Origin: a virus
Taxonomy: Duplodnaviria; Caudoviricetes
Direction: 5' to 3' (one strand)
Virus record (IMG/VR): IMGVR_UViG_3300020200_000168
Location: 1-24,740 of that record
Length of the DNA: 24,740 nt
Position 1 is the stretch's first letter, and each line of letters starts with the position of its first letter. The translations under genes were made by a program, and so were the position numbers. Of the stretch, positions 4,295-23,801 are shown one piece after another. Below the pieces are notes generated by a model. The model saw only the letters and a list, made by a program, of their open reading frames with translations, was not told the DNA's origin and ran no database searches.

Positions 4295-5428
4295 TCATGG
4301 GAGTCCTCCGATGCCGCCGCCTTTGGGCGACGTGAACCACGACAGCCCATTGTCGAACGTGCCGCCGCGCCCTTGGTTGCCGAAGAGCGAGCCCCAGTCC
4401 ACGGTGGTCGCGCCTCTCATCAGCGATCCGAGATAACCCTGTTGCGTATTGTGGCCGGCGATGTTGGCCGCGTTCTGGGCCGAATACCCGGCAAGCCCGC
4501 TCTGGTAAGCCGCGGGGTTGACGCCGGGGCTGACCATCGAGGATTCCGGCAGGAGGTAACTCTGGGGCGGGGCGGTGCGTCCGCTGGACCGGCCGAGCAC
4601 CTGGATGAATGGGTCGCCATAGATGGCCGCGCGCTGGCTGGCCACGCTTGAGGCGAACTGCTGGCGCTCGCGCCGGCGACGTTCGGCCTCGGATCCAAGC
4701 TGCATGGCCTCGGTGAACACGTCGGTGGTGCCGTAACCCAGCCCGCGGTCGGCTTGCCCGGCGCGGACGGCTTGCTGCACCTCGCGCGTGAGCGACGGGC
4801 CGAGCGCATAGCCGAGGTCGAGGTCGCCCTGGGCATCGGCGGCAAGGCGGTCGAGGATGGCTGTGGAGGCGGGGTCGTAAGCGCGGAGCGCGGCGAAAGC
4901 CTGCGGGCCGAGCTCGCGCACGTCTTTAAGCGACTGGTCGCGGGCGACACGTTCGAGCGCCGAGATGCGGGGCTGGGCGCGCTCGGCGAGGTCGAGCAGA
5001 CCGGGCGCGGCGGCGACGTTCTCGGTGTAGGTTTCCTCGACGGGTTCGGTAACCAACTGGCGCTCGTAACGATACCGCAACGGGGTCCCAAAATGAATTT
5101 GGTCGACCTGCGATTGCGGATCCAAGACGGGCACGAACTTTTCGACCTGGCGCTGCACGGTGCGGGTGCGCTGCTGGGACGAGGCGGGGCGGCCGAAGAA
5201 GCGGTCCCAGTCGATGCGGGACCGCAGCGCGGCGATCTCGGGGTCGAACTGCTCGCGGAGCGAGACCTTTTGAGGCAGGAACTCGAGCTCGGCGGCCATG
5301 GCGTCGCGGGTCATGGCGCCGAAGTTGGGCGGCGCGGGCATGTCGGGGTTGAAGGCGCCGGCGGCCCCGGCGATGCCGACGCCTGCGGATGTGACAGCGG
5401 CGAGGGTGGCGATGGTTTCAAGGCCCAT
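4295..5428 (-). CDS. Putative DNA ejection/pilot protein, 377 aa
   Basis: N-terminus MGLETIATLAAVTSAGVGIAGAAG is hydrophobic and Gly/Ala-rich. It has a QADRGLGYGT motif and a Gly-rich C-terminus, and directly follows the GNAT gene. Confidence 0.7.
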   Translation of the reverse strand: MGLETIATLAAVTSAGVGIAGAAGAFNPDMPAPPNFGAMTRDAMAAELEFLPQKVSLREQFDPEIAALRSRIDWDRFFGRPASSQQRTRTVQRQVEKFVPVLDPQSQVDQIHFGTPLRYRYERQLVTEPVEETYTENVAAAPGLLDLAERAQPRISALERVARDQSLKDVRELGPQAFAALRAYDPASTAILDRLAADAQGDLDLGYALGPSLTREVQQAVRAGQADRGLGYGTTDVFTEAMQLGSEAERRRRERQQFASSVASQRAAIYGDPFIQVLGRSSGRTAPPQSYLLPESSMVSPGVNPAAYQSGLAGYSAQNAANIAGHNTQQGYLGSLMRGATTVDWGSLFGNQGRGGTFDNGLSWFTSPKGGGIGGLP

Positions 5429-5900
5429 AAGCGATTCCTTTCACAAAGCAGTTTTCAACCAGACGAAAGCCTTGGCGGCCAAGCAGCCGGGCGCTCGGAC
5501 ATTCTGGCGGGACACTGACGTGCAACGTCCGCGCGCCGAGATGAACCGCGGCTTTCTGCATTACGCCGAGCAATCGCAGTTGGATTTTGGCCCGTGTGGC
5601 GGGAGAAAGTTTGGGGTGGCTGTGCCAGACAATTTCCACGGCCTTGACATGGGACACGTCGGTGAGGCTGGCGACCAAGGCGACGGCGACAAGGCCGACC
5701 AGTTGGTTATTCTGCCACGCGCCCCAGGCGTAAAAGACATTCTGCGCGCTGGCCTGTTGCAACCGCGCCCGCACCGTGACGGGATTGAACGACTCGCCCC
5801 GGCGACCGAAGTCCATTTCGTCCCAGCACGCCTTGAGCAACGTCACCGCATTGTCCACGTCGGCCGGGGCCAGTGCTTTGATTTTGACGGTCGGGTTCAT
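5418..5900 (-). CDS. GNAT-family acetyltransferase-like protein (virion module), 160 aa
   Basis: The likely start is the ATG at 5900 (MNPTVKIKALAPADV..., ATGA overlap). GNAT-like pattern: QLVGLV, AVEIVWHSHP, AAVHLGARTLHV, RLLGRQGFRLVE. Confidence 0.75.
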   Translation of the reverse strand: MNPTVKIKALAPADVDNAVTLLKACWDEMDFGRRGESFNPVTVRARLQQASAQNVFYAWGAWQNNQLVGLVAVALVASLTDVSHVKAVEIVWHSHPKLSPATRAKIQLRLLGVMQKAAVHLGARTLHVSVPPECPSARLLGRQGFRLVENCFVKGIAYGP

Positions 5901-6049
5901 TCGATCAGCCTCGCCCGGCAGCCGCCGCAGACCCACTGGCCGAACGGGAGCAGCTTGCCGCAACCCATGCAGCTCTCCGTCGCCTCGGGGCGCGGTCTCG
6001 GGTCGGACCTGCGAATCACAGGCCGGCGCTTCTTGCGCGAGCGGTTCAT
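5897..6049 (-). CDS. Small zinc-ribbon protein, 50 aa (not in ORF track)
   Basis: MNRSRKKRRPVIRRSDPRPRPEATESCMGCGKLLPFGQWVCGGCRARLIE has two CxxC pairs; its stop overlaps the GNAT ATG. Confidence 0.6.
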   Translation of the reverse strand: MNRSRKKRRPVIRRSDPRPRPEATESCMGCGKLLPFGQWVCGGCRARLIE

Positions 6050-6146
6050 AGGGCATCGGGTTCAAAGGGTGTAAGTTCGGACCGTCATGCGGAAGGTGTT
6101 GGCGGTCGCGGTGGGCAGGAAGGAGATGGCTTTGGGGTCGCTCATA

Positions 6147-7706
6147 TTACCAGCCACGGTAGGCGTAGCAGCGGAGTTTCCAGTCAGCGGCAGCAATCAG
6201 GTCCAAGGCAGGTGTGGCATTCAAAACGTAGGGGGCATAAGTGCCAAACATATAGCGCAGCGTGCAGGTGGTGGCGTTGGAGGAAGCCTCCGAAAACACC
6301 CCATTGGCGTTGTGACTTTGGGGCAGCAGCACCTCATCATTCTGCGCGTAGCCGTCGCTGCCCGTTTGATTTACAAGCGTCCAGCGGAATATGTCAGGCT
6401 TGAGACCGAGCTTGTGGGTCTCACTCTTGGAGCTGTTGGCGAGGGTGAAGGACTGGTCGGCGCTGCTCTTGAACTGGCCCCGGAACATGTAGCTGGTTAT
6501 GCTGGTGATGGCACCGCCAGACACGACCGATTCACCCACGAAGACGCGCTGTTTAGTGGTTGCCGTCGCTCCGTCGCCAAGATACATTTGCATCTCATTG
6601 ATAAGGAACGTGTGTGCGCCGCTGGCAATGCTGGCCGCGTCGTCGTTTACGTAGGTGGGCCGGGTGGTGGTGTAGCCGTAGGTCAGGGCGGCGGTCGATG
6701 CATCGCGGTCAACAAACAGGTAATACGTATTGTCTGACGCAGGCAACGTCCACGCGCTGCTGGTGTTGGCGGTGTAACGGGCGATGTAGTCCACCGCACC
6801 ATTGGCATCATGCCCGGCGGCAAAGGCGACCACGAGCGGGCTGGTGGAGGTGGCCAACAAGCTGATGTTCTGACCGGAGTAGCTTAGAATGACTGGATGT
6901 CCATTGGTGTCCACCGGGCCGGTGAGCGCGGTCTGCCGCACGGACACGGTGGCGCGCGCGCTTGATGGGGTGACGGGGCTGAGAAGTTGAAAGTTGGTGC
7001 CGTCGAACGTCACGCAAACCCATTGACCGGCCTTGATGTCGCCGTTGTCGAGGGTGCCGTTGTAACTCTTGACAATGGTGGGAGGGCTGGCGAGGCCGGA
7101 GACTTGCAGCGTGGCCGCGCCCGTGTTGACGGTGTTGGCCTTGAAGATGACGGGCACGCCGGTCAGGTCCGCGTAGGCGCGGACGGCGGGCGTGGGCGTG
7201 ATGGCATAAGAGTCCGTGCTGCCGGAATCCGCGCCGAAGACCACGGCGCCATTGCCGGAAGGCTGGACCATCTGGAACTGTGTGCCGTCATAGCGCACCC
7301 AGACGAGCTGGCCGGTGCGGATGTCGCCGGCCGAGAGGGCGTTTGCGCCTTGCTTCGTGAGCGCCTTGGTGCCGGCGATGCCGGAGACGGCCACGGTCAC
7401 GGCGGCGGTGTTCGTGTTGGCGGCGACGTAGGCGAACTCTTGGCCGGCCACGAGGGAAGTGGGCAAGATGGTGGCGCTGGCGGCCGCGGCGAGGACATGG
7501 GCGTTGGCCGTGCCGGAGTCGGTGGCGTAGAACCACGGACCGTAAGCGCCCTTGACGGCGGTGACGGCCGAGTTGGTGATCTGCGAGGTGTCGGCGGTGC
7601 CCGAGAGCGCGAGCGTGGGCAGGCCGAGCGCGTTGAGCTTGGCGTTGGTGATCTCCTCAAGCCGCGTGAAGATCTTCCGGGCGGTGATGGTGATGCTAAG
7701 AGCCAT
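6147..7706 (-). CDS. Tail fibre / receptor-binding protein, 519 aa
   Basis: Thr/Ala/Ser-rich with two copies of a fibre module (DSG...AN..NT.A.T..VSG...GDI..GQ.V.V.(Y/F)DGT.FQ); follows the nozzle gene. Confidence 0.8.
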   Translation of the reverse strand: MALSITITARKIFTRLEEITNAKLNALGLPTLALSGTADTSQITNSAVTAVKGAYGPWFYATDSGTANAHVLAAAASATILPTSLVAGQEFAYVAANTNTAAVTVAVSGIAGTKALTKQGANALSAGDIRTGQLVWVRYDGTQFQMVQPSGNGAVVFGADSGSTDSYAITPTPAVRAYADLTGVPVIFKANTVNTGAATLQVSGLASPPTIVKSYNGTLDNGDIKAGQWVCVTFDGTNFQLLSPVTPSSARATVSVRQTALTGPVDTNGHPVILSYSGQNISLLATSTSPLVVAFAAGHDANGAVDYIARYTANTSSAWTLPASDNTYYLFVDRDASTAALTYGYTTTRPTYVNDDAASIASGAHTFLINEMQMYLGDGATATTKQRVFVGESVVSGGAITSITSYMFRGQFKSSADQSFTLANSSKSETHKLGLKPDIFRWTLVNQTGSDGYAQNDEVLLPQSHNANGVFSEASSNATTCTLRYMFGTYAPYVLNATPALDLIAAADWKLRCYAYRGW

Positions 7707-7715
7707 GGTGGTTGG

Positions 7716-10097
7716 TTACGCGGCGAGCACGCCGGGTTTGCGACCGCTGGCGGTGGCGGCGAGCTGGATGCTGTTGACCTCGACCCGCCCGGCGGTTCCG
7801 GTGATCTTCACCTGAATCCACGCCCCGCCCTCGTTGATCGGGAAGTTCTCGGTCATCTCCTGGTGCTGGTCGAAGTTGATGCCGGCGGTGCCGAGGGTGG
7901 TGCCGGTGACGTTGTCGGGCACAACGCTGTAGTCCTGCCTGCGGGCGGTCGCCCAGTCGAGGCTGGCGTTGGTCTCGACCCAGGCGGCGGTCCCGGCGGT
8001 GTCGTAAGTCGTGCGGCTTCGGGTGCGACCGCTCACGGCGGCGAAGGACTCGTTCACGCCATCGGTCAGGGTGGTGATGCTGTAAGTGGGCGCCCAGGTC
8101 TGGAGGCTCACGAGACATTCGCGGAAACGCTTGCGGTCGGCCGGGCCGCGATAACCGCGCGTGATGAGTTCGGTCTGCACCGCTTGCTGGGTGTAACGGA
8201 TGCCGGACATGCCGTAGTCCACGTAAGCCCACGAGTTGGTGCCGTAGAAGCCCGTGGTTGAGGCGGCGCCGCCATTGATGAGCACGGTGGGGTTGGCGCC
8301 GTTGGTGGCGAGGAACCTCACGCCCCAGCTCTTCTGTTGCGGGGTGGTGTTGGGCGCAAGCCAGGGGTTGCTGCCGGACTGGTTGAAGCCGGGCTGGTTG
8401 AGCCGGTCGATCCAGATGTTGTCGCGCGCGTAACCGCCCGAGACACCCCAGCGGCCGAAACCGGCGATCGGGCCGAGATTCGTGCTGAAGCCCGTGTTCA
8501 CGAGGACCGTCGTGCCGCCGTTGACCTGCAAGGTGTCGTTGTTGGTCGGCGTGACTTCGTGCACGTAGACATCGGCGTAGTAAGCCGCCGGGGTCTTGTC
8601 GAGAATGTCGTCTTTGAACCCCTCCTCGTAGAGCCGGAGATAGCCGAAGCGGTCGAAGTAACCGAGGCGCAGCTTGTCCTGGTAGGTGAACGTGACCCAG
8701 CGATGGATGTTGAGGCCGTTGCGGGTGTCGGAAGTCTGGCGCTGGTCGAAGCCGCACCACGCCTGGTTCTGCGTGTCGTAAACGAGGACGGCGTTGTTGA
8801 CGCCCTTGAAGAGCACTTTCTTGAGGCTGGCGGTCGAGGCGGTCTCGGCGGTGCCGTTGAGCGTCACGCTCGCGCCTTGCGCGGTGAACACGTTGTCGCC
8901 GTAGACCGTCTCGGTGCCGTTGGTCAGGCTGGTGTCGGCGCTGCTGCCCTGGGCGTAGCGATACTCGGCGCCCGAGGTGACGTTGACCGTGAGCGTGCCG
9001 CCGGCGCTGTAACTGCCGCTCACGAGTTCGGCGTCGAGCAGCTCGGCGTTGTCGAGCGGCACGGCCATGTAGAGCTTGCCGTCCCAGTAAGCGGCGACCG
9101 CGCCCGAGCCGCCGTTGCGACCGGCGGCGTAAGGCCAGTTGACGCGGTCCATGGTGCGCTCCATCGGGGCGCTCAGGATGGCTTGCGTGCTCTGGATCTG
9201 GTTCAACTCGGTGAGCTTGAGCGTCACGATCCCCTTCTCGGAAAGCCAGGCGAGGTCGTTGCCCATGCGCACGACGCTCCACGGGCTGACGCAACCGTAT
9301 TCGTTCGTCACGTCGCCGAGGCGGACGGAGGAGAGGTCGCCGTAGACGTTATCGACGCGGAGGATGCTCTGGTCCTTGAACATGATGAGCGTGGTGTCGG
9401 TGAACGGGGCGATGGCCACGAGCGCGTCGTTGTTGCCCTTGTTGATCTTGAACTCGCTGAGCACGGGCGTGTAACGGGTGTAGTCGAGCAGGTCGCTCAC
9501 GGCCACCTCGTCGCGGTCCTTGATGACAAGCAGCCGGTTCTTGTAGTAGAGCCCGAACGAACTGTTGGAGATGGCTTGCGTGCCCGTGCCCGAGGCGGTC
9601 TGGGCGATGGCCTTGAAGCCCTCGTCGAGCGAGGTGCAGACCAGCGGCGCTTCGTCGGCCCCGCGCAGGAGCACGAGCACGTTCATGCACTGGACGAACT
9701 GCACGCAGGTCGAGGCCGAGAGCGCGGCGGCGCCCGAGGGCAGGGTGGTGGTGAGCAGCTTGCCGTCGTTGTTCGGGCGCAGGGCGTAGATGGCGGGCGA
9801 GCCGCCGGTCGTGCCGGCCACGACGATCCATTCGAGCCCGTCGTCCGGGTTGGCGAACACGGCGGCGCAATACGTCTCGGTGAAGGTCGTCTGGCCGCCG
9901 TCGGGCATCCACTGGCAGATGGCGTCTCCAAGCCGGGGCTCGGCGCGCTTGTTGCGGAAGCGCATGTTGACCGCGCGCGCGACCATGCCGGGGCGGAGAT
10001 GAGGCGCGTAAGTGCGCTCGTCCACGCCGATGAACTCGGCGTCGCCCTCGACGCCCCAGGGGGCGTCCTGCTGGCCGATGGGAGTCTGGTTCTTCAC
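7716..10097 (-). CDS. Tail nozzle / tubular protein B-like (beta-propeller), 793 aa
   Basis: The probable start is the GTG at 10097 overlapping the upstream TGA. Motifs ARAVNMRF, YYKNRLLV, VAVSDLLD, LIMFKDQSI, EYGCVSPWSVV, LAWLSEKGI and NAVLVYDTQNQAW are typical of podovirus nozzle (T7 gp12 / P22 gp10-like) proteins. Confidence 0.8.
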   Translation of the reverse strand: MKNQTPIGQQDAPWGVEGDAEFIGVDERTYAPHLRPGMVARAVNMRFRNKRAEPRLGDAICQWMPDGGQTTFTETYCAAVFANPDDGLEWIVVAGTTGGSPAIYALRPNNDGKLLTTTLPSGAAALSASTCVQFVQCMNVLVLLRGADEAPLVCTSLDEGFKAIAQTASGTGTQAISNSSFGLYYKNRLLVIKDRDEVAVSDLLDYTRYTPVLSEFKINKGNNDALVAIAPFTDTTLIMFKDQSILRVDNVYGDLSSVRLGDVTNEYGCVSPWSVVRMGNDLAWLSEKGIVTLKLTELNQIQSTQAILSAPMERTMDRVNWPYAAGRNGGSGAVAAYWDGKLYMAVPLDNAELLDAELVSGSYSAGGTLTVNVTSGAEYRYAQGSSADTSLTNGTETVYGDNVFTAQGASVTLNGTAETASTASLKKVLFKGVNNAVLVYDTQNQAWCGFDQRQTSDTRNGLNIHRWVTFTYQDKLRLGYFDRFGYLRLYEEGFKDDILDKTPAAYYADVYVHEVTPTNNDTLQVNGGTTVLVNTGFSTNLGPIAGFGRWGVSGGYARDNIWIDRLNQPGFNQSGSNPWLAPNTTPQQKSWGVRFLATNGANPTVLINGGAASTTGFYGTNSWAYVDYGMSGIRYTQQAVQTELITRGYRGPADRKRFRECLVSLQTWAPTYSITTLTDGVNESFAAVSGRTRSRTTYDTAGTAAWVETNASLDWATARRQDYSVVPDNVTGTTLGTAGINFDQHQEMTENFPINEGGAWIQVKITGTAGRVEVNSIQLAATASGRKPGVLAA

Positions 10098-10756
10098 GTC
10101 TTGCGGGTGAGTTCCTGCACCTTGGCGTCGAGCGCCTGGTGGGTTTTCCAGAGCTGGGCCATCTCGGAAATCTTGGCCTTCACGTCGTCGTTCTTGGCGG
10201 CCTCGACGCCGGCGATGACGGTCTCGAGCAACTCGTTCTTGGCGGTGGCGTCCTGCAAGGCGCGGGCAGCCTTGACGGTCTTGAGGCGGGCGACCCAGCC
10301 GAGCACGCCGGACACGGCGAGCAGCGCCATGTTGACGAAAGGCGCGGTGGGCGTGGGGTTGACCGCGGTGTTGACCGTGCGGACCGTCTCGATCGCGCCG
10401 GTGAGGGCGGGGGCGACGGTGGTCACGACGTTGGTCACGTAGTTCGTGAGCGTGACGGCGGGCTGGACCTGCACGAGCACGTTGGTGACGAGGACGGGCC
10501 CGGCCGGGGTGGTGTTGGTGAGCACGACGGTGGTCGTGTTGGTCTGGGCGGGGAGGACGCGGACTTGCTCGACCACGTTGGTGGTGGTGACGAACGGGTG
10601 TTTGAGCGCGGCGAACGTGCCGCAACCCGAGCCGGACAGGGCGACGGCGATGAGCAGGACCCAGAGCGCGATGAGCACGATGAGCGCGGCGATCTCGGCG
10701 CGGTTCCAGTTCTTCCCGTTCTTGAGTTTGAAGCGGAAGGGCATGGCTGGGTTCAT
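10094..10756 (-). CDS. Membrane/lipoprotein, possible spanin- or holin-like lysis protein, 220 aa
   Basis: Start at ATG 10756 (ATGA overlap). A hydrophobic segment ends in a lipobox-like LSGSGC, followed by a Thr/Asn/Val-rich beta region, a second hydrophobic segment (FVNMALLAVSGVLGWVA) and a C-terminal coiled coil. Confidence 0.55.
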   Translation of the reverse strand: MNPAMPFRFKLKNGKNWNRAEIAALIVLIALWVLLIAVALSGSGCGTFAALKHPFVTTTNVVEQVRVLPAQTNTTTVVLTNTTPAGPVLVTNVLVQVQPAVTLTNYVTNVVTTVAPALTGAIETVRTVNTAVNPTPTAPFVNMALLAVSGVLGWVARLKTVKAARALQDATAKNELLETVIAGVEAAKNDDVKAKISEMAQLWKTHQALDAKVQELTRKT

Positions 10757-15494: not shown

Positions 15495-16484
15495 TTACGG
15501 TTTGAACTTGCCGAACGCGCGGGGGTTGTCGACGCGCAGACCGGCGATGGCGCGGCACAGGATGCGGGGACCGCCGCCCAGGTCGGGCAGGCGCTCCATG
15601 GTGGGCATGCGCTGGAAGTGCAGCGCGAGCTTGTCGAAGTCGCACACGTAGCCGCGGTCGGTGTCCGTGGTCGCGCCTCCGATGAAGTTCGAGCTCACGA
15701 CTTCCATCGAGCCGTAGTCGCCGTTGTAGATGGTGCAGGTGTTGGTCACCGTCTCGCTGGCGCCGTCGTAGTTGAAGCTGCGAACCTTGGTGTTCGTGCT
15801 CGTGGTGTTGGCGACGGTGCGGGCCATGTCGGTGAAGCGCCGGCGCAGGACCGAGCCGCAGACGAGCACGTGGTCACCGTTGAACCCGTTGGAGTCGAAG
15901 ATCGCGGTGAGCATGCCCTGGATGTCCGTGTCCTCGGTCAAGCTGGCCGTGGCCGTGGTGTTGACCTGTGTGGACGGGGTGCGGAAGTTGGAGTTGACGC
16001 TGTAGAGCGTCGGCCCCGCCGTGGAGATCCACGTGTCCATGGCGCACGTGAGGTTCGCCTTGGATCCGTCATCCTCCTGCGCGTCGGCGCCGCCCAACAG
16101 GGTGGCCTCGATGTCGCGCTTGAGCTCGACGATGGACTTGCGTGTGGCCTCGACGATTTCGCCGCCGGACCCGAGGCCGGCCACGTCGCTCACGTCCTGC
16201 GCGAGGGTGGAGACCTTGGCGGTGCGGTCGAAGATCTGGAGGCGGTTCTTGAGGCGCGCGCGGTTGGCCACGGCGTTCTCGAACTCGCTGATGTCCTTGC
16301 CGTCGACACTGCCCGTCACCTTGACGTCGGCGAAGTTGTCGGCAAGCCACTCGAACAGCACGTTGGTGGCCTTGCCGACTTTCTTGATTCGGCTCGTGAA
16401 CGGCGTCTGGCGCACGTCCGCGAAGGAGATGAGGTCGGCAAGATCCTCACGTTTTCCGATTTGGGTTGCTTCGGTCAGCTGCAT
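15495..16484 (-). CDS. Major capsid protein (DUF5309/SU10-like), 329 aa
   Basis: Motifs GKREDLADLIS, QTPFTS, ATNVLFEW, NRLQIFDRTAKVS, VAG, ELKRDIEATLL and YNGDYGSMEVV. Confidence 0.9.
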   Translation of the reverse strand: MQLTEATQIGKREDLADLISFADVRQTPFTSRIKKVGKATNVLFEWLADNFADVKVTGSVDGKDISEFENAVANRARLKNRLQIFDRTAKVSTLAQDVSDVAGLGSGGEIVEATRKSIVELKRDIEATLLGGADAQEDDGSKANLTCAMDTWISTAGPTLYSVNSNFRTPSTQVNTTATASLTEDTDIQGMLTAIFDSNGFNGDHVLVCGSVLRRRFTDMARTVANTTSTNTKVRSFNYDGASETVTNTCTIYNGDYGSMEVVSSNFIGGATTDTDRGYVCDFDKLALHFQRMPTMERLPDLGGGPRILCRAIAGLRVDNPRAFGKFKP

Positions 16485-16527: not shown

Positions 16528-17586
16528 TCACCGCAAGAGCGGCATGGTTTTGAGCACCGCGCTCAGCCCGTCATCGTCGCCCGACCTCAACCGCTGCATG
16601 GCAGCGGCCTTTTCCGAATCAGAACTGTGGGGCCTTGGGGCCGCGCCCGCGCCTGGAGGCTTGGGCACCGGCTTGGAGGCGCCGTTGAGCCGCGCCGTGG
16701 CTGCGGCCGTGTCGTCCGCCTTGAGGGCGAGCAACCCGCGCACGAAGATGGCGCCGGCCATTTTCCAATGGGCGAGCCGCTTGATCTCCGGCAGCGTTTC
16801 GAGCACGGCGTTGAACTGCTGGAACTCCGCGCTCTTGTTGTCCTTGAGCCACGGGAACTGGGCCTCGGCCTTGCGGTTGAAGTCCGCCTCGGTGCGTTTC
16901 CACGTGTCGCGCGCCTGCCGCTCCTCGAACGAAGCCTTGGCGCGGAGCGCGTTGGCGTCGTCCCGTGCGGCTTCGAGCGCGGCCCGCAAGGTCTCCGGTT
17001 CGTAATCCGGCACCTGCACCTTGGCCTGGTTGAACCACTCGGCGGTGCGCTCGGGGTCCTGGTTGAGTTCCCTGAGTTTCTCGCGCACCGTGGCCAGCGC
17101 GCGCTCGGCGATCTCGCGGTCCTTGACCCACGGTTCATCACCGCGGGGGGCTGGACTGGATTCTGCCGGCGGCTTGGCCGCCTTGAGGTCTTCGAGCTCC
17201 TTTCGCGCCGTCTCCAGCGCTTCCTCGGCCGCCTTGCGCCGGGCCACTTCCTTGCCGATGCGGCGCTCGAACTTGTCGGCGCCCTTGGGCTCGTCGTGAT
17301 CCGGGCCGGGCTCCGAGTCGCCCTGCTCCTGGTCCTGATTCAGTTTTGAAGGATCGTCCGTCGATTCGGCGACTTCGCCCGGTTGCCCGGTGTCCGTCGT
17401 TTCGCCCCCTGCGTCTGCCTGCGGGGCCGCGTCGCCTTCCGGCTTGGCGATGCCCAGCAAGCGGGCCAGGGCGCCCGTCAACTGCGCTTTCTGCGTTGCG
17501 TCTGCCGCAGCGTTTTGAGCCGGCTGCGCGGCCACCGTGGTTTCGGCTTGCGCCGGGGCTTGTCCACCGCCCCCTTGAGAGTTCAT
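16528..17586 (-). CDS. Capsid scaffolding protein, 352 aa
   Basis: The likely start is the ATG at 17586 (MNSQGGGGQ...). Acidic disordered N-terminus, KFERRIGKEVARRKAAEE coiled coil and Pro-rich C-terminal tail; immediately precedes the capsid gene. Confidence 0.8.
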   Translation of the reverse strand: MNSQGGGGQAPAQAETTVAAQPAQNAAADATQKAQLTGALARLLGIAKPEGDAAPQADAGGETTDTGQPGEVAESTDDPSKLNQDQEQGDSEPGPDHDEPKGADKFERRIGKEVARRKAAEEALETARKELEDLKAAKPPAESSPAPRGDEPWVKDREIAERALATVREKLRELNQDPERTAEWFNQAKVQVPDYEPETLRAALEAARDDANALRAKASFEERQARDTWKRTEADFNRKAEAQFPWLKDNKSAEFQQFNAVLETLPEIKRLAHWKMAGAIFVRGLLALKADDTAAATARLNGASKPVPKPPGAGAAPRPHSSDSEKAAAMQRLRSGDDDGLSAVLKTMPLLR

Positions 17587-17730
17587 TCGGGTCAGCGCGT
17601 TTGGAGGAGCCGCGCAGACGCTCCATGGGCCAGTGTTCACGCGCCTCGCGGCGCACCGCCCAACACAGAACGGCGGTGATTGCGCCTGATGAAAAGCACG
17701 AGGCGGGCGTGGTGTAAACAGACCTCCTTC

Positions 17731-17770
17731 TACAACCGTCCAAAACCGACCAAAACAGGCCAAACTTTCT
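17731..17770. promoter_or_regulatory. Phased 10-bp direct repeats upstream of the structural operon
   Basis: tacaaccgtc-caaaaccgac-caaaacaggc-caaactttct lies in the ~200-nt intergenic gap ahead of the scaffold gene. Confidence 0.45.
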
Positions 17771-17789
17771 TGAAGAAGAACTGCGGTTA

Positions 17790-17990
17790 CTACACCGGAA
17801 GGCCGATGATCTGGGCGACAACGACTTTTCTGAAGCGCCGGCCCTTGCCGCGACCGACGACAGCGGGGCGGAGCTGGCCATCGCGGGCGGCGGCTTCCTG
17901 GCGGAACGTCTCGATGCTCCATCCCGTGGCGGCAAGCACCTGGGCCCGGCGCAACAGGAACGGCAGACGTTGAAACTCGGCGGCGGTCAT
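17790..17990 (-). CDS. AlpA/excisionase-like small HTH DNA-binding protein, 66 aa
   Basis: FLLRRAQVLAATGWSIETFR...GRRFRKVVV matches the AlpA/MerR-like winged-helix pattern. Confidence 0.7.
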   Translation of the reverse strand: MTAAEFQRLPFLLRRAQVLAATGWSIETFRQEAAARDGQLRPAVVGRGKGRRFRKVVVAQIIGLPV

Positions 17991-18229
17991 GGGTTGGTGC
18001 CGCGGGCTTTGTCGCGGAGGGTGGTGAGGGCGCGCCAGAACTCGCGCACGCCGCCGACCTTGCCGGCGAGCTGGAGTTTCTCATCGCCGCCCACGCGCTC
18101 GTCCTCGATCGCGTCGAGCAGTTGGTCAAGCACGGCGTCCTTGACGGCGGCGAGCGCGCGCCACTGGGGCGATTCATCGGGCAGCGAGGCGAGGGCCTCG
18201 AGCACGAGGCGTTCGGTCTGGGGGTTCAT
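17987..18229 (-). CDS. Small helical phage protein, 80 aa (resembles the small gene usually found between portal and scaffold)
   Basis: MNPQTERLVLEALASL...QLAGKVGGVREFWRAL; ATGA overlap with the next gene. Confidence 0.6.
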   Translation of the reverse strand: MNPQTERLVLEALASLPDESPQWRALAAVKDAVLDQLLDAIEDERVGGDEKLQLAGKVGGVREFWRALTTLRDKARGTNP

Positions 18230-18231
18230 GG

Positions 18232-18438
18232 TCAGGAGGGGTTGGGGGTGGAGTCGGTCGGGGCGGGTTCGGCGGCCTCGGCGTGGAGCTGGTCGCGGTG
18301 GACCCAGACGCGGACGCCATCGGCGACGCGGACGGCGCGGTGAAAGCCCGGGACGTCTGCCGGCTCGATCGCGGTGATCTCGAAGGCGGGCCCTTCGCGC
18401 TGCTGGTAGAACCATCGGGCCGTCGGGGTCGGGGTCAT
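18232..18438 (-). CDS. Hypothetical protein, 68 aa
   Basis: Fills the gap between the attI-like site and the next gene, with phage-like codon usage. Confidence 0.55.
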   Translation of the reverse strand: MTPTPTARWFYQQREGPAFEITAIEPADVPGFHRAVRVADGVRVWVHRDQLHAEAAEPAPTDSTPNPS

Positions 18439-18450
18439 GAGGTGTTGCGT

Positions 18451-18497
18451 GTATATTGCACAACCGCGGCAGGGTGTCGTATATTCAACTGTTATGC
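18451..18497 (+). other. attI-like integron recombination site (or secondary GTT insertion site)
   Basis: CGTATAT-TCAACT-GTTATGC core (GTT at 18491) with no attC-type hairpin upstream; GTATATT is directly repeated at 18451 and 18479. Confidence 0.55.
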
Positions 18498-19093
18498 GCC
18501 TCGCCGTTGCGCGTGTTCGTGTCCATCTGCCAGCGGTTCTTCACTTCGAGCATCACCGGCGAGTGTGTCCGCTTTTCGTTGAGATGGTCATCTTTACGCC
18601 AGCCATCCTTGACCGGCTTCGTTTGCCCGACGATGCGCCAGCCTGTCCCTCGCAGACTCGCGCCGGATTCGGTTTGGAGCGTGTAGGTTATCAGACGTTG
18701 CCCGCCCATCGCCCGCCACGCCCGCCAGCAGGCTTGGTAGAGCATCGAACACGCGCCTTTCGGGGCGGTTTCGATTGTGCAGACCCGCAGCACTTCGGCC
18801 GTCCATCCGTCCATCAGCGTTGCCGAGAGCGGATTGCCCACTATTGCCACTCCGACCAGCTTCCCGTCGCACGCCAGGCCACACGACCACTTGCCGCCGT
18901 TGCGGGCCGTTCGCCCATTGTGCCGGTGGTAGGCTGCCACGAAGTCGTTGGCTTTCCTCAGAGTCATCGGCACGAGGTATGGTTTTCCAGATTCGACCGG
19001 CGCATAACCAGGCGCTGCACTGAACGCCTGCCCCGCTTCTCCGTTTCGGGGCGGCGCTTCAAGTCCTGGCAGCGTTGTGTCGGCGTGAGTCAT
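18485..19093 (-). CDS. XF1762-family / Mom-like GNAT-fold putative DNA modification protein, 202 aa
   Basis: Motifs LVPMTLRKANDFVAAYHRH, LVGVAIVGNP, AEVLRVCT, ACSMLYQACWRA, RLITYTLQTESGASLRGTGW and K.RW. Confidence 0.85.
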   Translation of the reverse strand: MTHADTTLPGLEAPPRNGEAGQAFSAAPGYAPVESGKPYLVPMTLRKANDFVAAYHRHNGRTARNGGKWSCGLACDGKLVGVAIVGNPLSATLMDGWTAEVLRVCTIETAPKGACSMLYQACWRAWRAMGGQRLITYTLQTESGASLRGTGWRIVGQTKPVKDGWRKDDHLNEKRTHSPVMLEVKNRWQMDTNTRNGEAHNS

Positions 19094-19122
19094 GGTCGGG
19101 CAGGCGTCAGTGAGCTTTCTCG
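18492..19122 (+). mobile_element. Integron-type gene cassette carrying the Mom-like gene in antisense orientation
   Basis: Begins G^TTATGCGCC (18491-18500) and ends in an attC whose R'' side, GGCGCATAAC (18999-19008), is the exact 10-nt reverse complement. This is the signature expected of an integrated circular cassette. Confidence 0.8.
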
Positions 19123-19128
19123 TTAGAC
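19002..19128 (+). other. attC site, 127 bp
   Basis: R'' GCATAAC, 5-nt spacer, L'' GCTGCACT ... L' AGTGAGC, 6-nt spacer, R' GTTAGAC. The arms GCTGCACTGAACGCCTGCCCCG and CGGGCAGGCGTCAGTGAGC pair with extrahelical bases at the canonical positions. Confidence 0.85.
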
Positions 19129-19157
19129 GGCTTCATAAAGCCTTTGGTAATTCGCAC

Positions 19158-19181
19158 GGTCGCTCACCCGGAGCGTTAGCC
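19158..19181 (+). other. Right half of a second, truncated attC site
   Basis: GGTC-GCTCACC (L'), CGGAGC (6-nt spacer), GTTAGCC (R'); no matching left arm in 19129-19157. Confidence 0.6.
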
Positions 19182-19182
19182 G

Positions 19183-19755
19183 TCAGCGTTCGCTCTCGAT
19201 TTGCGCGAGCAGGCGAGCCAGGTCGCCAGTGGTGAATTTGCACGATTGCATTACGACTACGGTTTTACCTACGATTCGATACGGCAGGTTTCCACTCGCA
19301 GGCACAGCTTCCTCGGTGGTTTTCTTGTCCTCGATCCACGCTCGCTGTTCGGCGATTGTCCGGAGCCGGGCCCCAGAGAAGACTTGGGCGGCCTGTGCCG
19401 GTGTCAAATTTCGCACGTCCATTTCGAGGGTTTCGCCGCCTGACACAAGCAGCGTCACCGGCGCGCTCGCGTGCTTCTTTTGGAGTTCGTAGGGCAGCCG
19501 GCGCAGGCGGCGGACGCCGGGGGAGTCATTTAGAAGCAGGTTGGGGTAGAGTTGTTGCCGCCCGATCTGTTCAAAGCGATAGACGGTTTCGGGCGATATG
19601 TCTTTGCATTGGTCGCAGATTTGATCCACGAAGTCGGGATTCTCGTCGATGTTTTGGGCGATGAGCTGGCCCGCCTTGAACCAGCATTCGACGCCTTTGT
19701 TGATGAGGCCGATGATTTCCACGATGTCTGCATTGTTGCGTTTAAGTGTGTTCAT
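19183..19755 (-). CDS. Hypothetical protein, 190 aa (cassette cargo)
   Basis: Start at ATG 19755 (MNTLKRNNADIV..., ATGA overlap). The stop sits 1 nt from the R' box GTTAGCC. The gene is AT-richer than the backbone. Confidence 0.75.
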   Translation of the reverse strand: MNTLKRNNADIVEIIGLINKGVECWFKAGQLIAQNIDENPDFVDQICDQCKDISPETVYRFEQIGRQQLYPNLLLNDSPGVRRLRRLPYELQKKHASAPVTLLVSGGETLEMDVRNLTPAQAAQVFSGARLRTIAEQRAWIEDKKTTEEAVPASGNLPYRIVGKTVVVMQSCKFTTGDLARLLAQIESER

Positions 19756-20192
19756 AGAGTCGTGAGATGTTTTTCTATTTGTGCCGCCGCGTTTGTGGTT
19801 TTGAAGAAGAGGTTTTTGCCAGACCAGTAGCGGTTGCGGGCGCGGTGATGATCCCTGCACCGAAGCGAGCAGTATTTTCTTGATTTGGATTGCGATACGA
19901 TTTCCTTGCCGCAGTATAGGCATTGGCTTTTGTAGCTTTCGACAGTCCATTCGGCGGCGCACCGATTCCGACAGACATAGCCGCCACACATACTTTCTTC
20001 TTTTACTTTGCCGCCACAAACCTCGCATGGCTTTAGGTCTTTTAGTATCCACGGAATGCCTTCGCCTTCCAGGCATTCGTCACTGCATACGCAGTGCGAG
20101 TATGTGCGTGCTTGGAATGGTTTTCCGCAACCCGTGCAAGTTCGGGTTTTGGATGGAGCGCAAATCACTGGAGCGAATGGGGGCGTGGTCAT
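19752..20192 (-). CDS. Multi-zinc-finger protein, 146 aa (cassette cargo)
   Basis: Start at ATG 20192. Three Cys4 units: CTGCGKPF..CSDEC, CEVCGG..CRNRC, CLYCGKE..KYCSLRC. Confidence 0.75.
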   Translation of the reverse strand: MTTPPFAPVICAPSKTRTCTGCGKPFQARTYSHCVCSDECLEGEGIPWILKDLKPCEVCGGKVKEESMCGGYVCRNRCAAEWTVESYKSQCLYCGKEIVSQSKSRKYCSLRCRDHHRARNRYWSGKNLFFKTTNAAAQIEKHLTTL

Positions 20193-20596
20193 AGCGGGCG
20201 GTGGGAGGAGGTGCCGAGGCGGCGGTCGAGGTCGGTGTGGAGGTTGGCGGCGTCGCGCTCGGCGAGTTCGGCGCGGATCGTGGCGGTGGCTTCGTTCCAT
20301 GAGATGCCGGGCGAGGTGTTGGCGGGGCCGCGGGCGCCGCAGGAGGCGCACATGACGGCGCCCACGCTCGGGTTCACATGGGGAAGGTCCGGCGGGGGCT
20401 CGGGCAGGAAAGCCGAGGACTCGCCGCAGAAGGGGCAGGGGTTGAGTTTCATGCTAGACTCCGGTGTTGGAACGGGACGGGAAACTTGCAAACCCGGATA
20501 AACACGGATGCCAAGGGCTTGCGGAAGCGGATTTCGGTCTCTGAATCCGTGTCCATCTGTGTTTATCCGTGGTTGAACTGTGGTTTCCAGGTTCAT
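20189..20596 (-). CDS. Lar-like restriction-alleviation zinc-ribbon protein with repeat-derived leader (alternative start 20452)
   Basis: MKLNPCPFCG...VMCASCGARGP...WN is the Lar-family pattern; it is in frame with an upstream ATG at 20596 supplied by the repeat. Confidence 0.7.
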   Translation of the reverse strand: MNLETTVQPRINTDGHGFRDRNPLPQALGIRVYPGLQVSRPVPTPESSMKLNPCPFCGESSAFLPEPPPDLPHVNPSVGAVMCASCGARGPANTSPGISWNEATATIRAELAERDAANLHTDLDRRLGTSSHRPL

Positions 20597-20598
20597 GG
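20480..20598. repeat. Palindromic ACACGGAT-type element, left copy (one 10-nt unit shorter)
   Basis: 20495-20598 matches 20731-20834 at 102/104 nt; both copies share the GGAAACTTGCAA end. Confidence 0.9.
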
Positions 20599-20832
20599 TG
20601 TGATCTCCATCGCGGCGCGGACGAACTCGGCGCCGAGGGGCGCGACAATCGCGTTGCCATAGCCTCTCAGCAGGGCGACGCGACCGGGGAAGGCCGTGGC
20701 GAGCAGGAAACTTGCAACCACGGATGGACACGGATAAACACGGATGCCAAGGGCTTGCGGAAGCGGATTTCGGCCTCTGAATCCGTGTCCATCTGTGTTT
20801 ATCCGTGGTTGAACTGTGGTTTCTAGGTTCAT
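20593..20832 (-). pseudogene. 79-aa ORF: repeat-derived leader fused to the C-terminal remnant of a C5 DNA methyltransferase
   Basis: ...LLATAFPGRVALLRGYGNAIVAPLGAEFVRAAME resembles motif X and the final helix of phage C5-MTases; no other MTase motifs are present. Confidence 0.65.
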
Positions 20833-20834
20833 GG
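20706..20834. repeat. Palindromic ACACGGAT-type element, right (complete) copy
   Basis: Inverted arms 20716-20745 and 20781-20810 are each built of three 10-mers and are 25/30 complementary, enclosing a 35-nt loop. Confidence 0.9.
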
Positions 20835-22412
20835 GTCGTTGGATTCGGGCGGGAGCCATTCGTCGGGCTGGGCGGGTGGGGGCGAGGCGGGTTTGATGCG
20901 TTCGCCTTTGTTGGCTTGCTCGTGGCCGTGGCGGACTTTCCAGGCGTGCCAGTCCTCGAAGCGGAACTGGTTTTTGTGGAAGAGCAGCTCGATCTTGCCG
21001 GTGGCGCCGTCACGGTTTTTGGCCACGAAACCGTTGATGCGCTGCGGAAGTTCGCTCCACTCGACCTGCCGGGTTCCGCCGGAGGTGTAGTGGTCGAAGA
21101 TGAGGTCGGTGTCGTCGGGCGGCGGGTCCTCGCCCTTGCGCGGGCGCTTGCGCTCGGGGAAGTAGAGGAAGAGGACGGCGTCGGAGTCCTGCTCGATGGC
21201 GCCGCAGTCGCGCAGGTCGGACATGACGGGGACGCGATGGCTTTCGGCCTGCTCGATGTTGCGGTTCATCTGGGCGAGGATGATCCACGGGACGTTGAGG
21301 TCTTTCTTGAGCTGGACGAACTGGGCGGAGATGTCGGTGAGTTCCTGGACGCGGTCGATGCGGCCGCTGCGGCGGTCGGGCAGGACGAGCTGAAGGTAGT
21401 CGAGGACGAAGCACTTGACGCCGAACTCGCGGACCATGCGGCGGGCCTTGGCGGCGATCTGGCTGATGGTCTGGCTGGGCTGGGAGTCAAGGGCAATGCG
21501 GGCGCCGGCGACTTGCGGGGCGGTGTTGAGCAGGGCTTGAAGGTCGGCGTTGGACATGAAGCCTTGCTTGAACTTGCCGGCGCTGACCTGGGCTTCGCCA
21601 AAGAGCATGCGGCGGCCAAGGCTCTTGGCGGACATCTCGAGCGAGAAGACGCCGACGGGGATGCCGGTCTGTTTCAGACCCGCCTCGTTGGTATGTTCAT
21701 AGCGAAGGGTAAGGTGGCTGACGATGTTGAGGGCGAGCGTGGTCTTGCCGCTGCCGGGACGGCCGGCGAGGACGACATAGCCATCCTCGGGGATGCCGCC
21801 GAGGACCTTGTCCATGTAATCGAGGCCGGTGGGGAGCCCGTCGATCTGGAGGCCGCCCTTGTGGTAGTGCTCGATGTGGGCGAGGGCGGCTTGGACGGCG
21901 GGGCGGAAGTCCCAGCAGTCTTGCTGGGTGGTGACCTCGGCGGTGGCGCGGTGGACGGTCTCGGCGGCGGCGTTGACGAAGGCGCCGACGTCGGGGCCGG
22001 TGTCGGCGGTCATGGCCTGGGCGCAGACTTTGGAGCACGCGGCGATGACGCGGCGAAGGCGCCACTTGTCGCGGAGGGTGTCGATGAAGAGCGGGAGGCG
22101 GGAGCGCAAGGGCGACTCGTTCATCCACTGGCCAAGGCCGGGGAGGCCGCCGGCGGCGTTGAGGATGTCGGGCGTGGCCTTGAGCGTCTCGTAAATGACG
22201 TGGTAATCGACTGTGCGGCCGTCGCGGGCGATCTTGAGGACGACGTCGAACACGTTGCGGAAGCGGTGGTCGAAGAACCAGTCGGGCGTGGCGCCGGCCT
22301 GGAGGACGACGTCGAGCGCGGCGTGGCCGTCCTGAAGGATGGCGCCGAGGACGGCCTGCTCCGCCTCGGGGGAGTAAGGCGGGAGCGAGTCGGTGGGGGT
22401 GGGAGGGGTCAT
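20829..22412 (-). CDS. dnaB: Replicative DNA helicase, DnaB family, 527 aa
   Basis: PPYSPEAEQAVLGAIL N-domain, Walker A GRPGSGKT, FSLEMS, LDYLQL, AQMNR, SDLRDCGAIEQD and AKNRDGATG. Confidence 0.97.
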   Translation of the reverse strand: MTPPTPTDSLPPYSPEAEQAVLGAILQDGHAALDVVLQAGATPDWFFDHRFRNVFDVVLKIARDGRTVDYHVIYETLKATPDILNAAGGLPGLGQWMNESPLRSRLPLFIDTLRDKWRLRRVIAACSKVCAQAMTADTGPDVGAFVNAAAETVHRATAEVTTQQDCWDFRPAVQAALAHIEHYHKGGLQIDGLPTGLDYMDKVLGGIPEDGYVVLAGRPGSGKTTLALNIVSHLTLRYEHTNEAGLKQTGIPVGVFSLEMSAKSLGRRMLFGEAQVSAGKFKQGFMSNADLQALLNTAPQVAGARIALDSQPSQTISQIAAKARRMVREFGVKCFVLDYLQLVLPDRRSGRIDRVQELTDISAQFVQLKKDLNVPWIILAQMNRNIEQAESHRVPVMSDLRDCGAIEQDSDAVLFLYFPERKRPRKGEDPPPDDTDLIFDHYTSGGTRQVEWSELPQRINGFVAKNRDGATGKIELLFHKNQFRFEDWHAWKVRHGHEQANKGERIKPASPPPAQPDEWLPPESNDP

Positions 22413-22795
22413 GCGAGCGGGGTTCTTCCGTGCTTCGGCGGCACTCTAGCCCACGATGCAAGCGTGACCGCAAGGTGCGTCTGGTTGAGGCGCTCGGATA
22501 CGTGCTTCAACTTTCGGGCCAACCCTTCCAAGTCGGTGATGTGATCGCGCAAGGCAAAGTCCGAGCTCACGAGTTCGGCGAACTCGGCACCCGTGATCTC
22601 GCGCGGGGTGGGTGTGTGGTTCAGGGCGTCGAGCAGCAACCGGGCGTCTCTCAAGGAGAGTGGGTTCCTGAAATCCCGCATCACGATGGCGAATGGTTTG
22701 GTGTCGTGGTAGAGCTCGGAGAGGCAGTGGTTGTAGGACCACACATCCGGCGCTTCGGTGGAGGGTTCGAGTTTCGGACGGCGTATTTTTTTCAT
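22409..22795 (-). CDS. Hypothetical protein, 128 aa
   Basis: ATGA overlaps on both sides, between the initiator and DnaB. Confidence 0.7.
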   Translation of the reverse strand: MKKIRRPKLEPSTEAPDVWSYNHCLSELYHDTKPFAIVMRDFRNPLSLRDARLLLDALNHTPTPREITGAEFAELVSSDFALRDHITDLEGLARKLKHVSERLNQTHLAVTLASWARVPPKHGRTPLA

Positions 22796-23727
22796 ACGGG
22801 GATGGAGAACAGGCTGGTCTGAAGTTCACGTTCGCGGGCGCGGAGGGCGTGGTGCTCGGCGTCGGGGGTGGTGCCGGCGAGGGCGTCGAGCTGGTCGGAG
22901 ACTTCGCGGAGTTCGCGGTTGATGGCTTCGCGGGCTTTCTGGCTGGCGATGAGGTGGACGGCGGTGGATCCGGCGCCGTTGGGCGGGGCGGCGAGGTCGC
23001 CAAGGGCCTTGGGGTGGCGGCGTTGAAAGTCGGAGCGGAAGCGGAGCAGGAGCGTGGTGGTCCAGCGGTTGAAAGAGCGGTTGTTTTCGACCATGGAGGC
23101 ATACCAGTCGACGGCCCAGGGTTCGGGGATGAAAGGTGCGCCGACGTCGAGCAAGGCGCCCCGGGTCTCGGTGGTGTCGAGGAACTCGATCACGTCGTCG
23201 AGCGTCGGTGGGTTGGATGCGGAGGCGATGGGGGCAGTCGGGTTTGGCGGGGTTCCTGACTCCGCGCGCGCGCGCTCCCCCCTCCCTATCTCCCCTCCTT
23301 TCTCCTTACTCTGTGTCGGGTCTGTTGCTCGGTCTGGTGTCGTGTCCGCTGACGGGTCTGCTGCTTGGTTTGTTGCCGGGTGTGGTGTCTGGTAGGTGTT
23401 GTAGTTGGTGACGGTGATGAGGGTGGAGACGGTGTCGGATTTGACGCGGACCATGCCCTTGGCGGCGAGCTCGCGGAGGAAGCCGGCCGCTTTCTCGCGT
23501 CCCCACTGCCAGCGGTCGGCGAGGCTGACGATGCTCCAGGCGAGCTGGCCGCGTTCGACGACGACGGGGACGCCGCGGATGCGGAGTTCGTGGCGTTCGG
23601 TGTTGGCGAGGAGGAGGATGTCGATCCAGGCTTGGGCGCGGTTGAAGGGTTCGGCGAGCCATAGGTCGTGGGTGCTGAGCCTGCGGGTCAGCGTGAGGGT
23701 GCCTGAGAGGTGGTTCATGGGGGTCAT
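22792..23727 (-). CDS. Phage replication initiator / replisome organiser, ~311 aa
   Basis: N-domain LWLAEPFNRAQAWIDILLLAN...VERGQLAWSIVSLADRWQW...TLITVTNYNTYQ, followed by a repeat linker and PPTLDDV. Start at ATG 23727 or 23718. Confidence 0.85.
   Translation of the reverse strand: MTPMNHLSGTLTLTRRLSTHDLWLAEPFNRAQAWIDILLLANTERHELRIRGVPVVVERGQLAWSIVSLADRWQWGREKAAGFLRELAAKGMVRVKSDTVSTLITVTNYNTYQTPHPATNQAADPSADTTPDRATDPTQSKEKGGEIGRGERARAESGTPPNPTAPIASASNPPTLDDVIEFLDTTETRGALLDVGAPFIPEPWAVDWYASMVENNRSFNRWTTTLLLRFRSDFQRRHPKALGDLAAPPNGAGSTAVHLIASQKAREAINRELREVSDQLDALAGTTPDAEHHALRARERELQTSLFSIPV
23317..23388. repeat. Six tandem degenerate 12-mers; probable iteron origin of replication
   Basis: cgggtctgttgc/tcggtctggtgt/cgtgtccgctga/cgggtctgctgc/ttggtttgttgc/cgggtgtggtgt inside the initiator gene, next to a purine/pyrimidine-skewed tract (about 23275-23312). 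Confidence 0.65.
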
Positions 23728-23732
23728 GGCTG

Positions 23733-23801
23733 CTATTCCTCGGCTTGTTCTGCGCACCAGCCGCCGTTGCAGGCGAGTTCGTCAGTCATGGGGTTGTTCA
23801 T
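23733..23801 (-). CDS. Possible 22-aa peptide
   Basis: MNNPMTDELACNGGWCAEQAEE starts at an ATGA overlap and stops 5 nt before the initiator ATG. Confidence 0.3.
   Translation of the reverse strand: MNNPMTDELACNGGWCAEQAEE

Follow-up and report, generated by a model that had tools for sequence, protein, structure and literature searches.

Which integrase, if any, serves an integron-type cassette array that lies in a phage genome with its genes reversed? Integrons are usually regarded as bacterial devices with one attI, one Pc promoter and cassettes in the sense orientation. The window, i.e., the whole 24,740-nt stretch of DNA analyzed here, is a phage fragment that is 58% complete, and the initial annotation described positions 18451 to 20192 as a cassette array with antisense cargo and no integrase, served by a host or distant IntI. 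We refer to this array as array B.

The sites of array B were recovered where they had been placed, i.e., an attI-like G^TT at 18491, a full attC, a 53-nt remnant ending in an attC right arm (R' at 19175) and a decayed attC left arm (about 20152-20185). The complete attC was the only match of a strict attC scan in the window, with a score of 37.5, whereas 30 shuffles reached at most 25.3. As the initial annotation had expected, it was also detected by a covariance model, trained on 46 GTDB and metagenome integron attC sites that aligned cleanly out of 69 candidates; the match reached 52.5 bits (rough E 2e-9) on the plus strand only, the next match in the window having 9.2 bits. The site reads R'', a 5-nt spacer, L'' with one extra base, L', a 6-nt spacer and R' at 19122, and shares 84% identity over 125 nt with an attC from another locus (L001). 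Folding energy alone does not single it out (z -1.47; 15 of 200 shuffles were equally good). The terminal 'CATAAC' at the window end, tried as a further candidate, was rejected by the covariance model.

The other two of the three attC sites in array B are broken, and neither half-site gave a covariance-model match. Weight matrices for half-sites, derived from 180 foreign attC sites, ranked the right arm of cassette 2 (19156-19181) second of 49,430 positions, and the decayed left arm (site start 20155) first of 49,444 without R'' and 20th with it. Furthermore, 24 nt of the cassette 2 remnant are identical to the right end of an intact attC in locus L458; no R'' matching this right arm was found. 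The exact 10-nt reverse complementarity between the ends of cassette 1 held, as did the AT-richer composition of cassette 3 (55% G+C, compared with 63% for cassette 1 and 65% for the window).

Features of array B, its surroundings and the complete record G001 (window positions unless G001 is given)
Feature	Position	Strand	Remarks
SU10-type major capsid gene	15495-16484	-	profile match
attI-B, second (remote) attI	18451..18493	+	crossover G18491^T18492; 14/15 core bases as in attI-A
XF1762-family / Mom-like DNA-modification gene	18485..19093	-	NF045478 E 1e-46 (over cut-off); phrog_1384 E 3e-32
Cassette 1, 631 bp, intact	18492..19122	+	obeys circle rule; ends 10/10 complementary
Complete attC, 127 nt	19002..19128	+ (top strand)	strict scan, covariance model
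Mini-ORF, 9 codons	19107..19136	-	spans R' crossover; ends 13 nt before cassette 1 ATG
Cassette 2 remnant, 53 nt	19123..19175	+	retains the right arm (about 19152-19181); no body, R'' or left arm
190-aa gene, cassette 3	19183..19755	-	36 homologues, 33-92% identity
146-aa Cys-rich gene, cassette 3	19752..20192	-	start/stop overlap with neighbors (ATGA)
Decayed attC	20155..20185	+	spacer and L'' retained, R'' degraded, right arm lost
Lar-like restriction-alleviation gene	20189-20452		directly upstream of array B
DnaB helicase	20829-22412	-	profile match
DnaD-like initiator	22792-23757	-	profile match
Integron integrase IntI, 326 aa	G001 29479-30459	-	5.6 kb past window end
attI-A	G001, 38 bp before intI ATG		G^TT crossover; first cassette ends match 10/10
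Phage integrase, 450 aa	G001, beyond window end		adjoins tRNA-like half

Using a composition-based strand caller that called annotated controls correctly, we found the cargo of cassettes 1 and 3 to be antisense to attI and attC, in agreement with the minus-strand reading of the initial annotation. The canonical layout, with genes on the attC top strand and a Pc near attI, is therefore not the one found here, all cargo of both this array and the second array described below being antisense. The product of the cassette 1 gene is 202 aa long when read from an ATG inside the attC (19093) and 160 aa when read from an ATG at 18967. The 9-codon mini-ORF just before it is a possible translation relay into this gene, and resembles the coupling ORFs described for class 1 integrons (PMC8876359). 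In cassette 3, the 190-aa protein has no Pfam, NCBIfam or PHROG family, and the 146-aa Cys-rich protein matches an HNH endonuclease family in part, over residues 53-124 only.

The XF1762 domain of the cassette 1 product is present in eight other loci at 75-82% identity. Six of these are attC-bounded and antisense, in four neighborhoods, and two are not cassettes. In one genome (G854), the first cassette in front of intI carries a relative of the cassette 1 gene with 78% identity, and in another (G857) an XF1762-domain gene lies within the intI array. In a third, 98% complete (G856), such a gene lies in an array with no IntI match, so that integrase-less arrays exist too. Array B itself is situated between the capsid gene and the dnaB and initiator replication genes, and the initiator, dnaB, lar and cassette 3 genes form, in that order, a chain on the minus strand with overlapping start and stop codons. 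Array B is thus an integron-type cassette array with antisense cargo among replication-region genes.

Between dnaB and lar lie two palindromic repeats of 107 bp, 97% identical, at 20492-20598 and 20728-20834, which flank a C-terminal remnant of a DNA methyltransferase (phrog_363). They align with many other contigs from the same runs and look like an abundant REP-type repeat. As attC candidates these hairpins scored in a loose scan and were rejected, there being no match in the strict scan or the covariance model.

The window contains no tyrosine recombinase, as had been stated. A search with a 17-nt attC pattern, however, retrieved a 41,557-bp viral record (G001), rated 100% complete, which differs from window positions 815-24740 by 2 mismatches in 23,926 bp and is therefore the same phage. 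This record encodes two tyrosine recombinases, an IntI and a phage integrase, both beyond the window end, and the 'no integrase' of the initial annotation was an artefact of the fragment. The IntI scores 272.6 bits against TIGR02249 (cut-off 265). Its best solved relative is VchIntI4 (PDB 2A3V; E 6e-44), and the alignment runs through the IntI-specific insertion. The residues R144, K169, H275, R278, H301 and Y310 are kept, and are invariant in 26 relatives; these six we take to be the catalytic residue set, which is accordingly intact. In one run (X3), contigs over array B and over intI had the same depth (25.8 and 26.4, respectively).

The 5' half of a tRNA, at L089 6359-6397 (G001 about 29358-29396), lies between intI and the phage integrase gene and matches bacterial tRNA starts in aligned contigs. 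It is likely the attP core of a temperate phage, in which case intI and the array beside it would lie at one end of the prophage. ARAGORN found no whole tRNA at this presumed attP.

The array beside intI, array A, carries attC sites at G001 31720, 32593 and 32993 (39.7-58.3 bits), to which a fourth, weak one of 18.5 bits is added. The circle rule holds for the first three cassettes over 10, 8 and 8 bases, and does not hold for the fourth. In G001, intI lies on the minus strand and attC on the plus strand. The antisense cargo comprises a PHROG-15826 protein, a QueC-like protein, a PAPS-reductase-like protein and two unknowns. Together with the Mom-like cargo of array B and the Lar-like gene, the QueC-like and PAPS-reductase-like cargo indicates a counter-restriction theme. 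Homologues of the two-gene QueC-like unit were also observed before the terminase gene and downstream of dnaB in locus L022, where they are flanked by a duplication of the terminase start and not by attC, which suggests that cassette cargo has there moved by another route.

The cores of attI-A and attI-B, 12,820 bp apart, are the sole places within 2 mismatches of this core in the 41,557 bp, and 200 shuffles yielded no copy within one mismatch. The motif upstream of attI-B recurs in the intI-adjacent sites of five other loci (L215, L223, L226, L230, L237), and both attI sites supply the first cassette gene with the same in-frame TGA stop. Since the two cores match at 14 of 15 bases, we consider array B to be, with fair confidence, a second, remote docking site of a phage-encoded integron, at whose G^TT that IntI likely loads antisense cassettes that are likely read by phage transcription from the far end. 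An exact scan of viral contigs with the attI core gave 119 loci, which look like chance matches in AT-rich DNA and were set aside; besides the two sites of G001, only one (L101) had a downstream attC-like match, single and weak.

The initial proposal of a host or distant IntI was therefore right in its second half, as the phage IntI lies 12 kb away beside a near-copy of the same attI. Dependence on a host IntI we regard as very improbable, given that the phage has an intact IntI of its own and that attI-B is a near copy of the attI adjoining it. In a FastTree phylogeny of 174 rows, moreover, the G001 IntI is one of 34 rows on a branch with 100% support, to which none of the 79 sampled GTDB members belongs. 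What speaks for a host enzyme is the lack of an integrase within the window, the array without IntI in G856, the acceptance of phage attC by IntI1 (Qi et al., 2023; PMC9892861), and the finding that, of 401 genomes in one candidate host order, 73 have an IntI. Excision of cassettes through attC x attC recombination may still be the work of a host IntI. The search for similar attC sites in the host, which the initial annotation had suggested, gave no close match in five test genomes. In the same tree, viral and bacterial IntIs cluster but require 7 label changes, and by this sequence comparison phage IntIs are not one clade. Verrucomicrobiota as the host would be a guess; of 401 Verrucomicrobiota genomes, only two gave capsid matches, with 26-28% identity and no control phylum.

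Array B could also be a stray insertion, i.e., a single cassette placed in an ordinary G^TT-like (attG) site and kept because its gene chanced to lie in line with the operon. Its target is, however, the 14/15 copy of attI-A, which largely refutes this account. Three successive cassette junctions stand behind that target, and a bacterial sense cassette would have brought its attC in on the coding strand, which is not so here. Loot et al. (10.1101/2022.09.11.507474) describe insertion by IntI outside att sites and cassettes expressible from resident promoters, and the resulting SALINs share with array B a single full attC far from intI and the use of a resident promoter. They differ from it in that its target is an attI copy with several successive junctions, and we give the stray insertion hardly any credence.

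To compare the remote docking site with other integrons, we surveyed cargo orientation beside IntI with an alignment of 26 close IntI relatives as query, taking the best 80 of 146 viral, the best 80 of at least 576 metagenome and the best 80 of at least 581 GTDB loci. Orientation was counted with the composition-based caller at loci with a detectable array upstream of intI. At 40 distinct viral loci, G001 included, 67 calls were antisense and one was sense (25 uncalled), as against none antisense and 26 sense at 14 GTDB loci (9 uncalled) and one antisense and 15 sense at 12 metagenome loci (10 uncalled). Counted by locus, antisense to sense was 34:0 for viral and 1:20 for non-viral IntI (Fisher p 4e-14, a value that ignores kinship among the interrelated viral loci). 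With a cruder caller based on the longest ORF, the viral loci yielded 36 antisense, 10 sense and 43 unclear calls. An ATG inside attC opened a frame of at least 150 nt into the cassette at 34 of 63 viral sites versus 4 of 45 non-viral sites. Viral IntI is thus regularly accompanied by reversed cargo, and bacterial IntI is not. The GenBank virus Rctr41k (KX853513 (L475) 4680-10101), absent from those tables of Qi et al., 2023 that were covered, has an IntI, annotated as xerD, that is followed downstream on the same strand by six attC matches, and its genes are sense.

The covariance model was then applied to the full length of 50 viral records, of which 46 carry an IntI, chosen as the longer ones of the 80. 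Ten genomes, selected by eye for attC sites remote from the intI-side array, were tested for a second attI. In seven (G001, G009, G030, G031, G033, G041, G042) the remote array begins with a copy of the genome's own attI that matches it at 16-19 of 19 bases; in the other three (G013, G035, G044) none was found. As G031 equals G033 over the compared stretch and G030, G031, G033 and G041 form one lineage, these amount to three or four independent cases. The genome G042 (L282, L456) has three attI copies, one beside intI and two remote.

The initial annotation had also expected relatives to differ in gene content exactly at G^TT. This is what was seen in the lineage just named: G030 is 99.93% identical to G031/G033 over 1,518 nt as far as the TT at the remote G^TT, after which different cassettes follow and the sequences rejoin, and cassette content at this remote G^TT also changes with G041. 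From the G onward, the first remote cassette of G030 matches an intI-side cassette of another genome, G038 (90%, 340 nt). For the window phage itself the expectation was not borne out, in that no variant with other cargo at attI-B was found; the neighbors of attI-B and cassette 3 matched the same genome only. Single queries with the 80-aa neighbor, IntI and the 190-aa gene retrieved no close relative beyond G001. The next-best DnaB relative, G049, has 48% identity. In that genome (L011 / G049 6182-8904), three antisense cassettes and a methyltransferase gene lie upstream of the replication initiator and run into what is left of intI, a C-terminal fragment, and the whole reads as an integron with its integrase lost; for comparison with attI-B it was unusable, as its array stands at a different place.

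These data bear on whether attI-B is still in use. It might instead be a fossil, once functional (e.g., after a duplication of attI-A) and now dead, the genes having become ordinary fixed members of an operon. Cassettes 2 and 3 keep half an attC only, the cassette 3 genes are coupled to lar upstream by overlapping start and stop codons, and contigs of six runs (subsets of X1, X3-X8), which drop rare variants, contained no excision joint at array A or B, nor was any cargo variant seen. The attI-B core and cassette 1 are nevertheless intact, with a perfect 10-nt end match of the kind that erodes without recent insertion; decay increases with distance from attI, as expected for a live array; and the remote attI of other phages has changed its cargo between near-identical genomes. 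On balance, we consider the fossil unlikely, although less so than the two accounts above.

If array B is a working second docking site, its operation may be outlined as follows. IntI joins the folded bottom strand of attC to attI and so fixes cassette orientation, as set out by Loot et al. (10.1101/2022.09.11.507474), so that the reversal of the cargo must lie in the cassettes themselves and not in wrong-way insertion. The phage IntI would likely insert and excise the cassettes of array B at G^TT. Each cassette would be read from its own attC end, the attC giving the start codon and first residues and the next site or attI giving the stop, with the consequence that the newest cassette would stand last, not first, on the transcript. 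Transcription of the replication operon (initiator, dnaB, lar) would continue into array B. We found no minus-strand terminator match in 17500-21000 and no strong match to a minus-strand promoter upstream of the array, which makes read-through likely. Array A would be read from a promoter behind the portal gene and onward into intI; promoter matches there stand at the far end and, pointing at intI, inside attI-A (two found, 0.9 expected). Cassette 1 should be mobile in principle, whereas cassettes 2 and 3, having lost half their attC, would be in the course of fixation or loss, and cassette 3 is likely fixed. Orientation relative to replication is described as affecting excision (PMC5371416). 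A weak plus-strand promoter match within attI-B (18457-18485; 9/12, 0.6 expected) has the classical Pc direction, against the cargo, and may be chance, a relic Pc or a means of antisense control; this match and the lack of a convincing minus-strand promoter both speak against the model.

Phage integrons as such are already known. In 21 phages, Qi et al., 2023 (PMC9892861) identified integrons as well as 17 CALINs, and IntI1 was active on five phage attC, which bears out the remark of the initial annotation that attC sites in phages are not unprecedented. Their phage M16-3 likewise has one intI and two attI-headed arrays far apart. However, the genes of both its arrays lie on the attC top strand in the bacterial way, as we checked, whereas cargo in the window phage is antisense and starts inside attC. 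Moreover, the M16-3 IntI is given in that source as 95% identical to a host chromosomal IntI, whereas the G001 IntI belongs to a branch without sampled bacterial members. The CALINs of TJE1, PH101, P12002L and ctTUS972 in the same report resemble array B in their attC-bounded small genes, often for DNA modification. We found those of ctTUS972 and PH101 to be antisense and that of TJE1 to be sense, unlike the window phage. The two published phage CALINs with antisense genes are those at MW202573 (L478) 2069-3738 and KR534323 75921-77987. The words 'antisense' and 'opposite' are absent from the main text of Qi et al., 2023 (PMC9892861); its figures and Dryad file may show the orientation.

CALINs and the inverted integron-integrase group were defined by Cury et al., 2016 (PMC4889954). 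A CALIN has at least two attC and no neighboring intI; array B falls outside this definition, as there is but one full attC besides an attI. No intI lies within 4 kb of it, and its IntI, unlike the situation in the CALINs of Qi et al., is encoded elsewhere in the same genome, 11.8 kb away. In the inverted group (Treponema and others), as here, intI and the cassette genes share a strand. There, however, intI is flipped relative to attC and so lies on the attC strand, whereas in G001 intI is on the minus strand and attC on the plus strand; the genes are what is flipped, and the geometry of intI, attI and attC is regular. With regular bacterial integrons (class 1; Vibrio cholerae IntI4/2A3V) the phage system shares the IntI insertion, the anatomy and polarity of attC, the circle rule and an attI that lies at the 5' end of intI and points away from it. 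It departs from them in cargo that reads toward attI and intI, in having no Pc-type expression, in placing the newest cassette last on the transcript and in having more than one attI per integrase. We found no report of reversed-cargo or multi-attI phage integrons in the literature searched, most subscription journals being outside its coverage.

Two docking sites, one of them in the replication region, provide a site-specific mechanism for part of the turnover of small phage genes, among them many DNA-modification genes. An array that lacks an integrase on a phage fragment may be part of a phage integron, which is a warning for annotation, and near-identical phages that differ exactly at a remote G^TT make the model directly testable. 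It is possible, although we put it forward tentatively and with somewhat more doubt than belief, that phages run a cassette economy of their own, in which one IntI serves several attI in different operons, a pool of reversed-polarity cassettes is shared, and polarity acts as a firewall between host and phage. As IntI fixes orientation, cassettes of foreign polarity would face against resident transcription. If this is true, a host cassette (e.g., an anti-phage gene) that entered a phage attI would point against the transcription of the phage and remain silent, a phage cassette in a host integron would face against Pc, and polarity would let phage and host share recombination chemistry without expressing each other's cargo.
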